A stretch of 64,000 nt of DNA from an uncultured Pseudobdellovibrionaceae bacterium (GTDB lineage: Bacteria > Bdellovibrionota > Bdellovibrionia > Bdellovibrionales > JAGQZY01): positions 64,433-128,432 of the forward strand of contig CAZPOV010000009.1 of assembly GCA_964588335.1 (NCBI GenBank), given 5' to 3'. The notes below the pieces were generated by a model. It saw only the letters and a list, made by a program, of their open reading frames with translations, did no database searches and was not told where the DNA came from. This document shows, piece by piece, positions 8,245 to 13,656 of this stretch. Within the stretch, counting starts at the first letter, position 1. Each line of letters opens with the position of its first letter. The translations under genes and the position numbers were made by a program.

Positions 8245-8847
8245 TTATATTTCGATAGAATAGCCAGCCGGGATGATTTCTTCAGGCGGCACATCGTCTT
8301 CAAGAGGTTCGGCCACTTGAACATCTTCGACAGGGACATAGTGAAAATCATAGGCCGTTTCCACTTGCACCCAACGAATCGTACCATTGACGGCAATTCG
8401 AAACGTGGCCCCTGCGTAACAGTCGGCCTCTTGTAAATGGGAAAATGAAACGCGGTCTCCTTCTGGAGTGATTGCGCGAGCACGACAAGCGATCTCTGAG
8501 TAATCGGGGTTAACAGTTTGGGCGTAGACGCTGCCCTGGTCGCGACCATCGGAGAACTGATAAAAGTCACCAACAGCGACCACTCGCAAGCGTCGGCCAA
8601 ACATAGAAAGAGTCGAGCCATCCAGGGCCCGTCCATTGCGGCAAAAACGTTGGGGAAGATTGCTAATTAAGTGCAGATCTCCCGCCAAGCGATCGCCCAA
8701 AGGTCGGTATTCACTGACATAAGCTCGGCAGACAACATCACCATTTTCTGGTTGCGGAATTGCTCCTAAGTCTTGGGCTTTTGCCACAGAAAATCCAAGG
8801 CCTATTGTCACGGCCAACAATGTCTTTTTAATCAACCAACCAATCAT
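8245..8847 (-). CDS. hypothetical secreted protein
   Basis: ATG at 8847 (MIGWLIKK) with GGAGG RBS; signal peptide ending AKA-Q. Confidence 0.7.
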   Translation of the reverse strand: MIGWLIKKTLLAVTIGLGFSVAKAQDLGAIPQPENGDVVCRAYVSEYRPLGDRLAGDLHLISNLPQRFCRNGRALDGSTLSMFGRRLRVVAVGDFYQFSDGRDQGSVYAQTVNPDYSEIACRARAITPEGDRVSFSHLQEADCYAGATFRIAVNGTIRWVQVETAYDFHYVPVEDVQVAEPLEDDVPPEEIIPAGYSIEI

Positions 8848-8874
8848 GAGTCTAACCTCCTCACTGATTCCTAT

Positions 8875-8890
8875 TGCAAAACAGAACCCA
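8875..8890 (-). promoter_or_regulatory. putative sigma54 promoter
   Basis: minus strand TGGGTTCTGTTTTGCA (GG-N10-GC) just upstream of the RBS. Confidence 0.5.
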
Positions 8891-9310
8891 GAAATTAGAG
8901 TTGGGTGATTTAAGGTATTTAAGAGCAAGGCCCGCTTCAGCTGCGGGTTCTACAGTAAATTTCTTTCAAAACCGGTGACAAATTCAGGCCCATTCCCGGT
9001 GGCGAAAATCGACGAAAGGGACCTTTTGATCCTACCGCGTGCGAGTGTCCGGTCGAGTCGACGACGATTTCTTTACAGGAAAAGAAATTGAAGCCAACTT
9101 CGTGACCGAACTGATTTAATTCGAATGATCAATCAAAGGCTGTCGATTGGCGGAGCCCCATCGCTCCTTTGACTTCACTTCCCAAGGGTCAACACCTTAA
9201 GCTATTGAAATAACTAAAAACTTTGAAACCCAAAAACAGCCAGTGGGATAGAGCTTTACAAAAAGTACCCTGAATGCTAAATCCCTGAGTTCACTAGGTT
9301 TCCAGACTTC

Positions 9311-9401
9311 GGAGAGGTGGCAGAGTGGTTGAATGCGCACGCCTGGAACGCGTGTAGGCGTTAATAGCGTCTCGAGAGTTCGAATCTCTCTCTCTCCGCC
9401 A
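9311..9401 (+). tRNA. tRNA-Ser(GGA)
   Basis: acceptor GGAGAGG/TCTCTCC, anticodon stem CACGC/GCGTG with loop CTGGAAC, long variable arm, TTCGAAT T-loop, discriminator G, encoded CCA. Confidence 0.97.
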
Positions 9402-9404
9402 AAA

Positions 9405-10058
9405 TCAAAAGGTACCAAGTCCCTTTCTGTACCGCCCCGCCGATAACTCTATCATTTTGCGATTCCGATCCTTCGGCAATTGGAACTCCCGTCTTCGTAA
9501 CGCCTTTCTAAGAGCCTCATCCATTTCCGAGCTAAACGATTCGTTCAGCCACTCAAGATCAAGTGCAATTGAAGTCTCAGCATCATCGAAAAAGTTACAC
9601 ATCTTAAAAGGCTCAGGTGTTGAATCAAGAGTGAGCGACGAGAATTCATAACACTCCACTCTCGTACAGAGTTCTGCTTTCACCGGATTTCTAAAGACAT
9701 ATTTAACCGCATTCCAGTAATAATCTTCATTATGGATTGAACACCACTTGTAGCGTCCTCCAAAGAAGTGATTGATTCGCCCGGCCTGCCGATTTGCACA
9801 GCGAGAGACCTCACGATGAAAATAAGTCATCGCTTTAGAAAGATTTTTATCAGGCGTACTGAGAATCCAATGATAGTGATTCGACATCAAAACAAAAGCA
9901 TGTGACCGAATGTGAAGGTGTTTATCGAGGTATCTAATTTTATCCAAGATGATTGGCCAAAGAATAGGGAGTGGAAGATAAAAGAACTCCTTATTATTGG
10001 ATCGATTGGTAATGTGATAGGGATACTCATCGGATTCATTCAGTGTCTTTCTAGGCAT
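9405..10058 (-). CDS. REP-associated tyrosine transposase (RAYT, Y1/HUH, IS200-like fold)
   Basis: YHITNRSNN, AFVLMSNHYH (HUH), GRYK, KYVFRNPVKA (catalytic Tyr), YEFSS. Confidence 0.9.
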   Translation of the reverse strand: MPRKTLNESDEYPYHITNRSNNKEFFYLPLPILWPIILDKIRYLDKHLHIRSHAFVLMSNHYHWILSTPDKNLSKAMTYFHREVSRCANRQAGRINHFFGGRYKWCSIHNEDYYWNAVKYVFRNPVKAELCTRVECYEFSSLTLDSTPEPFKMCNFFDDAETSIALDLEWLNESFSSEMDEALRKALRRREFQLPKDRNRKMIELSAGRYRKGLGTF

Positions 10059-10168
10059 GAAAAATTATCGATGCAATCCTCAGACAAAGCTTTCCTGAGG
10101 ATCAAATGCAAGACAGTGCAAAAAATCCTAAATCAAACCCGTTTCCCGGAAAAGGGACTTGGTACCTT
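9409..10168. mobile_element. RAYT unit bounded by 18-bp perfect inverted repeats
   Basis: AAGGTACCAAGTCCCTTT at 9409-9426 and its reverse complement AAAGGGACTTGGTACCTT at 10151-10168. Confidence 0.75.
9966..10166. repeat. copy 1 of a ~201-bp direct repeat (RAYT 5' end, upstream region and REP-like motif)
   Basis: ungapped alignment to 11334-11534, about 11 mismatches counted by eye. Confidence 0.92.
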
Positions 10169-10170
10169 GA

Positions 10171-10920
10171 TTATGGGTTGAATTCCTTGTTCATAACACA
10201 GGTAACTGGGTACTGATTGTCTACAAGATTGAATGTTGCATTATAATAATTCTCATCATAGACAGTGTCTAAATGAACAACCATTGCGCTTACATACAAG
10301 ACATTGTCTAATACACGTGAGTAATCAATCGTAAAATCATTACCAGATAGATTCAAAGTATTTTCGCCTGAACGCTTCCCCTCATGATGGTACAACTTAC
10401 CATCGATAGGATGGTAGCCCCCCGAGTTGATTTGCACAGAATTATCAATCGATGGGTCTCCTTTTGATCTCAAAATTAAACGATAATACTCATAATCATC
10501 AGTGCTTTCATCAGTGAAACAATACAAGAGAACTTCCTCGTCAGGCTCGGTGGCGTCATTGAGATCACTGCCGATGTACTCAAATATTGATCCATCATAA
10601 ACAATTATACCTCCATTGCGTTCAAGCACTAGAACTTCAGAGGTATTTAAGTCATTTGTTGAAACAGATTGGTCAGAGCAATCGATGGTCGACAATTTAA
10701 AGTTGCCAGTATTCACATCCTTCTCGATGTAAGATTCTAATGTGCTTTCACAACTTGAGTCGGGCGAATATTTGCCATAATAATTGTAGCCGGAAGAACT
10801 AATGATCTCTCCTGGGTTGTTTTGTGTACCTCCCTCAGCACTTTGAGATACTCCAGGGCCTGATCCCGATTTGCAAGAACAGATAAACAAAGCAATGAAT
10901 ACTAAAGTTGAAAGTCTCAT
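10171..10920 (-). CDS. orphan lipoprotein
   Basis: ATG at 10920 with GGAGGGG RBS; signal MRLSTLVFIALFICSC then G/S linker. Confidence 0.75.
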   Translation of the reverse strand: MRLSTLVFIALFICSCKSGSGPGVSQSAEGGTQNNPGEIISSSGYNYYGKYSPDSSCESTLESYIEKDVNTGNFKLSTIDCSDQSVSTNDLNTSEVLVLERNGGIIVYDGSIFEYIGSDLNDATEPDEEVLLYCFTDESTDDYEYYRLILRSKGDPSIDNSVQINSGGYHPIDGKLYHHEGKRSGENTLNLSGNDFTIDYSRVLDNVLYVSAMVVHLDTVYDENYYNATFNLVDNQYPVTCVMNKEFNP

Positions 10921-10944
10921 GTCCCCTCCATTTTCAATAAAAGA

Positions 10945-10960
10945 TGCAATCACAGTGCCA
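10945..10960 (-). promoter_or_regulatory. sigma54 promoter
   Basis: minus strand TGGCACTGTGATTGCA, exact match to TGGCAC-N5-TTGCA. Confidence 0.75.
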
Positions 10961-11333
10961 AGAGTGTCACCACAGCCTATTCAAACTCAGTGTTTCGTTA
11001 TGATAAAATGGCCCTATTTGAGATCATAAATTTTCTAATTTGTGTCCAATGAATCGACAAATCAACTTTATCTACAGGTTTTGATTTTAAACCGTCGAAA
11101 CTACAAGGTAATACCTGTACTTTTTATTTTGATAGAAGTGTTGAGTTCATCGACAGTGTCCAGGCTTTTAGCAATTTCAATTTAAATCAATAATCTTAAA
11201 TGTTTGCAACCTCAACTTCAATGTCGAAACGATGTTGTGTTAAAATCTGCCTTAACGAAAAGCTGTTACTCAGACACACCCTTGAAATTAAACAACAAAG
11301 ATTTCAAAATTAGAAAAGCGGACCGAGATGGGC

Positions 11334-11534
11334 AGGGAGCGGAAGATAAAAGAACTCCTTATTATTGGATCGATTGGTAATGTGGTAGGGAAACCCATCG
11401 GATTCAATCAGTGTCTTTCTAGAGATGAAAAATTATCGATGCAATCCTCAGACAAAGCTTTCCTGATGATCAAATACAAGACAGTGCAAAAAATCCTAAA
11501 TCAAACCCGTTCTCCGGAAAAGGGACTTGGTACC
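11334..11534 (-). pseudogene. truncated RAYT 5' fragment with REP-like end (copy 2 of the direct repeat)
   Basis: about 94% identical to 9966-10166; start codon ATG changed to ATC; ends in AAAGGGACTTGGTACC. Confidence 0.85.
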
Positions 11535-11583
11535 CTGCGAAGCTTTCGTTGATTTGAAGAGTAAATAAAGATTTAATCAAGGC

Positions 11584-11967
11584 ATGCTTCTATCCAAATT
11601 TAGATCAGAAATCTATATCTTGATACATGAGGACACGGTCCTCGCTAAGAATCTTAATAGCAAAGATAGGGTAAACCTTCCCGGAAAAGGAGCTTTTAAA
11701 CACCCCAGAAGTTTGGTGAGTGATTTTAAGCTGGCGGTAAGTGTAGTGAAAGATTGCATTGAAAAAGTTAATATAGGTAGTTTTGTGAAGCCCAAAGTAT
11801 TGTTGCATTGGAGCCCAGAGCTAGAAGGTGGATTTTCTCCTGTAGAGGCTCGCGTACTTTCTGAAATGGCAAGAGAGGCTGGTGCTCGGGAGGTTTACCT
11901 TCATACATCGTCTAACGAAATTTCCATAAATGATGTTAAGAGGGCTTTAAAAAAACATGCTAAATAA
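11584..11967 (+). CDS. small YjaA/MreB-subdomain-like protein
   Basis: FKHPRSLVSDF, KPKVLL, EGGFSPVEARVL.E...AGAREVYL resemble an MreB segment. Confidence 0.65.
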   Translation: MLLSKFRSEIYILIHEDTVLAKNLNSKDRVNLPGKGAFKHPRSLVSDFKLAVSVVKDCIEKVNIGSFVKPKVLLHWSPELEGGFSPVEARVLSEMAREAGAREVYLHTSSNEISINDVKRALKKHAK

Positions 11968-12135
11968 TGATTTGATGGTATTATTTTTGACTCTTACCAG
12001 TTTGCAGTCAGATAAAGTTTGTATCAGCCCTATATCACTTGGCCGATTTTAACTAGGAAGGTGGACTCATTTAGCCCGGGCTGGACATCCCGAGGCATCA
12101 TGTTCAGTTAGTATCTAAACCTAAAATTTCGTTAT

Positions 12136-12804
12136 CTACTGGAAAACGAGCTGTTCAACACCCATTGCGCAGCCGATATTTTCTTCGGCTGAAGTGAGAG
12201 AGTGTTTTATGTTTTTCATTAGCATTTTTTCGTTGAGAGCTGGCCCCATGTTAGAGAAAACATCGGCAGATACTTCAGCTTGAATGGCGTTATGCATTTG
12301 AAAAACAATTGTATCTTCGCCGTTGAGTTCAAACCCGTTTTCGATGGTTACAACGGAGGCACCACTATTTGCGGTTAGTTCAAGTTTGCCGTTTGATAGT
12401 TTAACATTGCCGTCAACTTGGGATGAAGCAATAACGGAAGTCCCAGTGATTCCAAATTGATTTGTGGACTCAGAAATTTCAATAAGCGTTCTGAATTGGT
12501 TTTTTGATAGAAAAAGATCAACAGATATAAAGCGACCATTGCCAAGCTCGATATTCGTGTTGATAGAGGCATTGACCGCCGCTGGAGTTTTGAGCCATTT
12601 GCTTCTGCCAGCATCATCACAATAAAGAACTTCAGAATAAAACTGAGAATAAAACTCATCTGGGGTTTTGCCATTGAAGGTAAAATTTGTGTTTGTGCCA
12701 TCGCCGCCATTTCCACCGCTGGCTGAATCGCCGCCTCCACTGCTACAGCCCAAAAGCGCTGAAGTAATTACAAAAACTGTCAATAAACTTAAAGACTTAC
12801 GCAT
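12136..12804 (-). CDS. orphan lipoprotein
   Basis: lipobox LLGC then Gly/Ser linker; GAGGA RBS before ATG 12804 (alternative start 12816). Confidence 0.75.
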   Translation of the reverse strand: MRKSLSLLTVFVITSALLGCSSGGGDSASGGNGGDGTNTNFTFNGKTPDEFYSQFYSEVLYCDDAGRSKWLKTPAAVNASINTNIELGNGRFISVDLFLSKNQFRTLIEISESTNQFGITGTSVIASSQVDGNVKLSNGKLELTANSGASVVTIENGFELNGEDTIVFQMHNAIQAEVSADVFSNMGPALNEKMLMKNIKHSLTSAEENIGCAMGVEQLVFQ

Positions 12805-12849
12805 CTGAATCCTCATACCTAGGTTTTAATGTTTGTGGAATATCATAGG

Positions 12850-12865
12850 TGCAATAAGTATTCCA
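12850..12865 (-). promoter_or_regulatory. putative sigma54 promoter
   Basis: minus strand TGGAATACTTATTGCA (GG-N10-GC). Confidence 0.55.
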
Positions 12866-12999
12866 GTGTTGAAAATCTTTTCCTTGATTTAAAAGTAGTG
12901 CAGCAGGCTATCTTCAGAGGAAATTCGATGATTTCCTCCACACATTTCAATGGACGCAGACAGGTGTGTCCTTTAAAAAAATGCTACTTAGGTAGCTTG

Positions 13000-13656
13000 T
13001 TAAATTTTATTGAGTTCCGTCAGTTCTTCGCGCTTTTTGTTTCGATTATAGTCTTCCGTTTTTTCAACATCGATAGACATTACGAAATAGACTCCAATAC
13101 TATCTCCTCGGAAGGGTTGTCCAGATGTGGCTTCGCTATAGGTGATCGAAGTGTATCTTATTCCTGTTGATAGATGACCACTAGGAACGTTGCTGTATCT
13201 CTCAATGGAGAGCGTATACCCAAAGGTGGCTTTAAATCTGAAGTCATTCTTCACTCCAGATCTTTCAGAGTCTAAGCTGTTGGAGAATCGGTAGGTTAAG
13301 CCGTAGCCTATTTTGAATTGATTGCGGCGGTTCACATAAAAATATTCAAGGTTTAATGGGATGCTTGTCCAGGTTGAAAGCCTATCTTCGCCGCCTTGGC
13401 TTTCTGCGGCATTGAGTCCCAAGTGAATTCGGGCTTCATAGGAATGGGGCTCGTTATCGACGATATCAAGCTTCGCACCTAAGGAGAAATAAATACCTGT
13501 ACCCGCCGATAAAGACTCCACAGGTTTGCCAGAGATTTGCGATATTTTTTCACCCCCCAATTCTCCACCAAGAGTCATTAATGGCGAGGCGGCAAAGGCC
13601 GAAGCCAAACGGGGAATGACTGAAAATGCAAAAATAAATACAATTGTTTTTAACAA
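13000..13656 (-). CDS. putative small outer-membrane beta-barrel protein
   Basis: signal peptide; alternating aromatic/Gly strands (SIPLNLEYFY, KIGYGLTY, TGIRYTSITY). Confidence 0.6.
   Translation of the reverse strand: MLKTIVFIFAFSVIPRLASAFAASPLMTLGGELGGEKISQISGKPVESLSAGTGIYFSLGAKLDIVDNEPHSYEARIHLGLNAAESQGGEDRLSTWTSIPLNLEYFYVNRRNQFKIGYGLTYRFSNSLDSERSGVKNDFRFKATFGYTLSIERYSNVPSGHLSTGIRYTSITYSEATSGQPFRGDSIGVYFVMSIDVEKTEDYNRNKKREELTELNKI

Follow-up and report, generated by a model that had tools for sequence, protein, structure and literature searches.

The 64,000-nucleotide (nt) window analysed here, a stretch of contig CAZPOV010000009.1 from an uncultured Pseudobdellovibrionaceae bacterium (genome G000; 3.67 Mb, 49 contigs, GC 45%), contains beside a tRNA-Ser(GGA) gene a gene for a repetitive extragenic palindrome (REP)-associated tyrosine transposase (RAYT, a 'domesticated transposase'), which is enclosed by two inverted copies of a short hairpin repeat, hereafter REP1. 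All positions given below refer to this window. The locus is a REPtron, an already known kind of element. We hold with moderate confidence that it consists of a single-copy, divergent RAYT bracketed by its cognate REP1 in inverted orientation, that it lies in a 3.6-kb low-GC accessory block turning over between relatives, and that the RAYT is a resident of this hotspot and not the agent of gene capture. The data directly show the architecture of the locus, the dispersed REP1 family, the replacement of the block in the related genome G003 and the recurrent occupation of the tRNA flank by RAYTs and REPs within the genus.

A preliminary description of this DNA had recognized a Y1/HUH protein of the RAYT type whose gene has its own hairpin repeat on either side, and this assignment is borne out by profile matches, motif alignment and the 18-nt inverted repeat; the coordinates it gave for the RAYT stop, the repeat, the overlap with the last RAYT codons and the neighbouring lipoprotein stop are likewise all correct. 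The RAYT gene runs convergent to the tRNA gene with its stop codon (9405–9407) 3 nt beyond the end of the latter, and the two copies of the inverted repeat (9409–9426 and 10151–10168) are 100% complementary. The tRNA-Ser(GGA) is the sole tRNA found by ARAGORN in the window, and in an Rfam scan it alone scored above the gathering cut-off. The following features (ORF, open reading frame; aa, amino acids) make up the locus:

9311–9401, forward strand: tRNA-Ser(GGA), found by ARAGORN and the Rfam tRNA model, the left anchor of the variable block.
9405–10058, reverse strand: RAYT-like Y1/HUH transposase gene, 217 aa, with H61-Y62-H63 and with Y120 within Y-x-x-x-NPV.
9409–9426, no strand assigned: left copy of REP1, AAGGTACCAAGTCCCTTT, beginning 7 nt past the tRNA end and overlapping the final 7 RAYT codons (RKGLGTF).
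9417–13053, no strand assigned: variable block of 3.6 kb, GC 39.6% versus 45% in the flanks.
10059–10150, reverse strand: RAYT leader of 92 nt, separating the RAYT start from the upstream REP; the matching spacing in relatives is 44–138 nt.
10151–10168, no strand assigned: right copy of REP1, 2 nt past the stop of the lipoprotein gene.
10171–10953, reverse strand: near-orphan lipoprotein gene that encodes a signal peptide plus Cys and probably starts with the ATG at 10920.
10954–11333, no strand assigned: AT-rich spacer of 380 nt upstream of the lipoprotein gene, with no similarity to the RAYT body or the rest of the genome.
11334–11537, reverse strand: truncated second copy of RAYT codons 1–31 (ATG changed to ATC), leader and REP1 (11519–11534), 94% identical to 9966–10169.
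11584–11967, forward strand: YjaA-like accessory gene with a below-threshold family score.
12136–12816, reverse strand: second lipoprotein-like ORF, no family match, within the low-GC block.

The predicted RAYT carries the sequence H61-Y62-H63 and, further towards its C-terminus, Y120, which we take to be the catalytic tyrosine of the Y1 fold. When aligned to TnpA_REP of E. coli (4ER8), the former corresponds to its HMH and the stretch K-Y120-VFRNPV to its D-Y-IYINPV. The NCBIfam model NF047646 (REP-associated tyrosine transposase) matched the protein with an E-value of 9.4e-19 and 67.7 bits, the cut-off being 80, and the Pfam family Y1_Tnp (PF01797) matched residues 39–121 with an E-value of 1.8e-4 and 22.1 bits, the cut-off being 23. 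Since the NF047646 match is significant yet below the threshold, we classify the protein as a putative divergent RAYT-like enzyme and not as an NF047646 equivalog. No helix-turn-helix (HTH) or DnaA-like C-terminal domain was found in it by Pfam. A tblastn search of the G000 genome returned one intact RAYT, one fragment of 29 aa and one paralogue with 30% identity. Of the features by which REPtrons are recognized, the HUH and Y1 motifs, inverted palindromic flanks, a dispersed repeat and a single gene copy without a near-identical paralogue are found here. The paralogue (C3:286481–287182, 30% aa identity) is flanked by a palindrome family of its own, GGTGCC[AT]GGCACC.

The 16-mer AAAGGGACTTGGTACC at the core of the repeat occurs 3 times in the window; in shuffled sequences, searched with at most 3 mismatches, the mean was 0.62 matches, and 4 of 100 shuffles reached 3. 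An imperfect hairpin had been described for this motif. As single-stranded DNA (ssDNA), REP1 is indeed predicted to fold with −3.8 to −5.0 kcal/mol (z-scores of −1.4 to −2.1) on the AAAGGGAC... strand of the two copies that flank the gene; the hairpin is weak, and it is the predicted fold neither at the third copy nor on the complementary strand. Palindromes of related lineages are changed on both arms, e.g. GGTACCAAGTACC and GGGAACTGTTACC, which we give as examples and not as a formal count of covariation.

A scan of the G000 genome revealed that the motif has other copies, as had been anticipated: 8 are exact, and 14 were found at up to 2 mismatches compared to 4 for a reversed control. The copies elsewhere in the genome comprise four on C5, one on C32, an inverted pair on C2 and one on C4. 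At each of the five loci away from this one a copy lies 2–23 nt past an ORF stop in the same orientation (stop-AAAAGGTACCAAGTCCCTTTTCC), and several adjoin members of the 16-copy palindrome family GGTGCC[AT]GGCACC mentioned above. Pfam assigned families to 3 of 10 ORFs flanking the other copies (DUF1552, ABC transporter, flagellin-type), a result that does not decide between core and accessory genes. REP1 is a low-copy REP family positioned just past gene ends. When searched with the same tolerance, 57 copies were counted in the sister genome G010 (control 0), many of them in tandem or inverted clusters, followed by 11 in G003 (control 4), 3 in G002 (two of which flank its RAYT), 2 in G005 and 1 in G011. 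In G010, a REP1-type RAYT is located at tRNA-Ser(TGA). G003 carries REP1, yet a REP1-type RAYT was not found there with this query, the sole match being 34% identical. A 38-nt REP1 unit is present 2–5 nt past tRNA-Ser(TGA) in G003 (L148 4860–4900, C141) and absent from G000 (C31:22427–22440), the site being otherwise aligned between both genomes and the boundaries of the insert being ambiguous by ATC. Because of this presence/absence difference, REP1 must be, or must have been, mobile on its own.

We compared this layout with relatives from the Bdellovibrionales and Pseudobdellovibrionaceae. RAYT homologues were found in 43 of the 61 genomes searched in the order (G000 counted), and a flanking inverted repeat of 14–39 nt was present at 17 of 19 and 16 of 17 RAYT loci of relatives (33/36 in total). 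The upstream repeat lies 44–138 nt before the RAYT start, the downstream repeat is found at or overlapping the RAYT 3′ end, and the sequence of the repeat varies with the RAYT lineage. A co-directional upstream ORF ends at most 4 nt from the upstream repeat in 12 of 17 loci, often with TAG or TAA inside the repeat; five loci have a common conserved upstream gene of about 230 aa (70–98% identity), and the remaining loci have unrelated upstream genes. According to Di Nocera 2013 (PMC3733652), the flanks of REPtrons and TIRtrons overlap the 3′ end of the gene, REPs lie <20 bp from ORF 3′ ends and RAYTs are probably expressed by read-through. A scan for promoters and terminators gave counts at chance level, with no promoter-like site in the RAYT leader. 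The stop codon abutting the repeat, the repeat within the last RAYT codons and the inverted bracket had been read as signs of gene capture. Since they are generic to the family, as seen at the loci of relatives and as described in PMC3733652, they are no such signs.

With the REPtrons described from E. coli, Stenotrophomonas and Marinomonas (PMC8266576, PMC5581495, PMC3733652), the locus shares a Y1/HUH protein in which both the HUH and the Y-x-x-x-NPV motif are present, a single intact copy in each lineage, inverted hairpins that bracket the gene with one overlapping its 3′ end, and a repeat that is dispersed past ORF 3′ ends and varies with the RAYT lineage. It differs in its very low copy number (8 exact copies, similar to the figures of 12–14 given for groups 1/4 in PMC5581495), in the head GTAC instead of GTAG, in a weak hairpin with a G.A mismatch, in the score below the NF047646 cut-off, in abutting a tRNA gene and in the presence of a truncated second copy; moreover, the protein is about 50 aa longer than TnpA_REP of E. 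coli (217 versus 165 aa). The TIRtrons or TIRYTs, as portrayed by Di Nocera 2013 (PMC3733652) and corresponding to subclass 2.1 in the classification of Quentin 2018 (PMC6006769), resemble the locus in having terminal inverted repeats (TIRs), a moderately abundant repeat family and a protein longer than classical RAYTs. However, the TIR consensus GGGG[AT][CG]A[CG] is absent here, the repeats are short imperfect palindromes and the protein shows no HTH or DnaA-like C-terminal domain by Pfam. Members of the IS200/IS605 insertion sequence (IS) family such as IS608 and ISDra2 belong to the same Y1/HUH superfamily, recognize hairpins in ssDNA and choose a short specific target beside which they insert, a behaviour that offers a possible model for landing just past a tRNA gene. 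They are multi-copy elements with direct subterminal hairpins, whereas here one intact copy, a best paralogue of 30% aa identity and inverted flanks were found; given the one intact copy and the inverted flanks, membership in this family was rejected.

The GC content drops to 37–40% over 9500–13000. The nearest available genome, G003, is 75–88% identical at the nucleotide level over aligned stretches. It is collinear with the window to either side of the tRNA, the syntenic flanks being 77–85% identical, and in place of 9417–13053 it has 3.2 kb of DNA with three unrelated ORFs, a GC content of 41.6% and no RAYT; this replacement segment starts with a solo hairpin that belongs to another REP type. 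The RAYT of G002 is 61–63% identical in aa sequence, and nucleotide homology of this genome to the window is limited to REP-RAYT-REP-tRNA, with unrelated genes on both sides inside a 15–22-kb non-syntenic region. Neither genome has the lipoprotein gene or the block. The tRNA itself is 100% identical in 8 of the 13 genomes of the genus (G000 counted). As judged from these alignments, the flank of tRNA-Ser(GGA) is a spot of gene turnover, in agreement with what the preliminary description had expected of relatives. An integrase-mediated tRNA genomic island would similarly consist of a variable low-GC accessory block right past the tRNA with contents differing between relatives; the block described here, however, is only 3.6 kb long, a scan of 17 ORFs between 2.6 and 22.2 kb revealed no integrase family, and no repeat of the last 24 nt of the tRNA (up to 3 mismatches), i.e. 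no attR-like site, was found in the 64-kb window. On account of the latter two findings, an integrase-type island was rejected.

RAYTs occupy the flanks of tRNA genes repeatedly. Among 78 RAYT loci (that of the window counted), 6 have a convergent tRNA at −22 to +24 nt of the RAYT 3′ end, namely Ser-GGA in G000, G002, G005 and G010, Ser-TGA in G010 and Leu-GAG in G017; at one further locus a tRNA-Asp lies 54 nt upstream. In a quick maximum-likelihood tree (IQ-TREE) of 76 of the 78 loci, two translations <190 aa having been dropped, 5 of the 7 tRNA-linked RAYTs (the tRNA-Asp locus counted) fall into the clade of 10 that contains the RAYT of the window (SH-aLRT 99). The G005 RAYT and the second G010 RAYT belong to two other distant clades, and well-supported branches force at least three origins. 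Across the 13 genomes of the genus, 4 have a RAYT within the first 60 nt past tRNA-Ser(GGA), 2 (G003 and G011) have a solo REP-like hairpin there and 7 have neither, and the RAYTs at this flank stem from three distant clades. No RAYT relics were detected in G000 past tRNA-Ser(TGA) or tRNA-Leu(GAG), sites that hold RAYTs in relatives, and REP1 follows only 1 of the 34 G000 tRNAs. These patterns are compatible with REP-directed landing and exchange, and they are equally expected if REPs merely accumulate at gene ends that border accessory DNA.

The direct repeat 9966–10169/11334–11537 spans 204 nt at 94% identity with 12 differences including the change of ATG to ATC, its copies are 1368 nt apart, and both boundaries of the second copy are sharp. 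A decayed RAYT 5′ end that terminates at the hairpin motif had been described at this position and is present in the assembly as such; 11131–11639 is uncovered by the listed contigs of the public run considered below, and the second copy is therefore without independent confirmation. Its inner end (11333/11334) is a break inside RAYT codon 31 with no hairpin. Hairpin ends had also been proposed to delimit a captured gene. The lipoprotein gene, however, has a hairpin on one side only, and its other boundary is this break in codon 31. No RAYT remnants were found between the two copies by blastn (word size 7) or tblastn. Of these differences, 7 are in coding sequence. Codons 1, 2 and 11 are derived in the fragment only. 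Codons 7 and 14 of the fragment agree with the closest orthologue (G002) and those of the intact RAYT do not, and at codon 12 the fragment has the majority residue of the family. Since the fragment is derived at some codons and orthologue-like at others, both copies have been altered since they split, a pattern that would fit two alleles better than a fresh copy. Closer relatives were sought in a metagenome scan (9 loci, best 56% aa identity) and a genome scan (15 loci, best 61%), none of which was near enough to date the duplication.

On this basis, the second copy would be the stump of an older or allelic RAYT. The intact RAYT probably arrived together with the lipoprotein gene on incoming DNA, through recombination for which the invariant tRNA/RAYT homology served as anchor, and the other end of this DNA may have been joined illegitimately inside the resident RAYT at codon 31. 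The RAYT would then maintain and spread REP1 hairpins as a resident of the hotspot. Several observations weigh against this scenario. The protein scores under both curated cut-offs (67.7 versus 80 and 22.1 versus 23 bits). Both repeat copies have their outer end where the REP ends, the synteny between G000 and G002 breaks within 2–4 nt of a REP and a segment in the flgL-csrA spacer of G003 is bracketed by REP1, all of which would also fit REP-directed breakage. The region 10912–11640 is weakly covered or uncovered in the one public run found, and the arrangement may be that of a minority haplotype. Finally, because no genome closer than about 85% at the nucleotide level is available, the order of events, the donor and any microhomology at the junction were not observed.

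The strongest alternative is a rearrangement mediated by the RAYT and its REPs, in which the enzyme nicks ssDNA at the feet of REP1 and strand transfer between REPs inserts or swaps DNA, thereby placing the lipoprotein segment and one REP-bearing end. Consistent with such a process, both copies of the direct repeat terminate at the outer edge of the REP, homology between G000 and G002 begins right at the REP, and REP1 is or was mobile as judged from the 38-nt indel and the 57 copies in G010. Moreover, TnpA_REP of E. coli and others has been reported to cleave and rejoin REP ssDNA in vitro (PMC8266576). The flgL-csrA spacer adds a second case: it measures 0.68 kb in G000 with one orphan ORF that was not found in 4 relatives, compared to a G003-specific 3.1-kb segment which lies inside two inverted REP1 pairs (L145 10620–13830; G003:C99:25620–28830) and contains small ORFs including an RHS-core-end-like fragment. 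Synteny breaks thus touch REP copies at both places, as the preliminary description had foreseen. Nevertheless, no hairpin marks the distal boundary of the lipoprotein segment (11333/11334), and REPs are found at ORF 3′ ends everywhere, as seen in this genome and as stated in PMC3733652, so that one would in any case expect them at the borders of accessory DNA. In G003, where the block has turned over, a RAYT of this type was not detected. Circles or junction intermediates had been proposed as a trace of activity; none were seen in the contigs of one public run, in which the only joint and the loose ends at the REP correspond to REP1 loci elsewhere in this genome, on C5. We thus consider a RAYT/REP-mediated rearrangement unlikely. 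The same holds for the proposal that the RAYT drives an acquisition hotspot: the RAYT lies inside the variable block and not at its edge, the block was turned over in G003 with no RAYT at the site, and gene capture driven by the RAYT is possible, if doubtful, and unsupported. Catalysis of the rearrangement by the RAYT is neither shown nor excluded by the data.

The arrangement could also be an artefact of assembly or strain mixture, in which the second copy and 10912–11640 would derive from a minor strain, the contig of the metagenome-assembled genome would join two haplotypes and no genome would carry the intact RAYT and the fragment 1.2 kb apart. We followed coverage in the assembled contigs, not the reads, of the only public run that holds the locus, among the contigs listed. 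A 24x contig of 45.8 kb matches 8800–10912 exactly and stops there, after passing unbroken through 9966–10169 despite long stretches identical to the second copy; 10960–11130 has a depth of 2.9, 11131–11639 is uncovered and a 12x contig begins at 11640. This dip over 10912–11640 suggests strain-level variation exactly there. A hole in the contigs by itself proves nothing, however, as coverage rests on those listed. The junction 11333/11334 joins non-RAYT DNA to the RAYT fragment, and a truncated copy is therefore real in some genome either way; likewise, 10912–10960 is part of the 5′ end of the lipoprotein gene, and a haplotype with this stretch should therefore carry the gene as well. An artefact is hence quite improbable. 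A purely local tandem duplication at the RAYT 5′ end, followed by deletions and drift around a lipoprotein gene of old residence, would account for the direct repeats 1368 nt apart and the lost start codon, and is nonetheless very unlikely given that the intervening segment has no second copy, that the copies diverge by 6% with the fragment keeping orthologue-like states at codons 7 and 14, and that the lipoprotein gene and the block are missing from G003 and G002.

For the lipoprotein, a word-indexed search returned only the protein itself, and one distant relative with 34% identity was found among 1.84 billion representative proteins. The gene past the second copy had been called an orphan, and in line with this it was not found in 60 relatives from the Bdellovibrionales; its product (127 aa) scores 53.5 bits against the YjaA family NF041448 (cut-off 125), an enterobacterial stress-protein family, and thus is not a strict orphan. 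The same ORF also shows a weak resemblance to an MreB segment. With regard to other tRNA flanks, four G000 tRNAs, namely Pro-GGG (C6:8217–8293), Leu-TAG (C8:51729–51813), His-GTG (C16:885–960) and Leu-GAG (C27:8173–8260), each have about 60 nt of similar sequence past them (cacc.ctc.tgg ... cacttccc ... gatgttg), perhaps the end of a shared element or a site of attachment type. In G008 (C15), the tRNA-Ser(GGA) at 755662–755752 is accompanied by a partial copy (positions 33–91, 95%) at 758198–758254, 2.5 kb downstream, reminiscent of the att pair of a small integrated element.

How REPs spread and how RAYTs benefit their host are open questions on which this locus bears, and the mechanisms of REP dissemination are called poorly understood in PMC8266576. 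The locus offers a compact natural system with a low-copy REP family that shows a clean indel polymorphism right past a tRNA gene and that has expanded to 57 copies in a sister genome, with one tRNA flank where RAYTs of three distant clades are found in a single genus, and with variable segments edged by REPs. We tentatively suggest, as a rather improbable option, that REP hairpins and whole RAYT-REP units of the genus may still be mobile and land preferentially a few nt past tRNA 3′ ends, tRNA-Ser above all, and past ORF stops; the tRNA-Ser(GGA) flank would then be a common landing pad, and leftover REPs would serve as break-and-join points for the exchange of accessory cassettes. Among the papers searched, none linked REPtron with 'tRNA gene' or REP with 'downstream of tRNA'. 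If a target choice past tRNA 3′ ends is not real, there is nothing more to the locus than a REPtron in a tRNA-adjacent variable spot. If it is real, REP insertion would become testable with a defined target; RAYTs would, with the flank as a landing pad, play a role in local gene turnover, and the flank would provide a natural target site for studying REP insertion.

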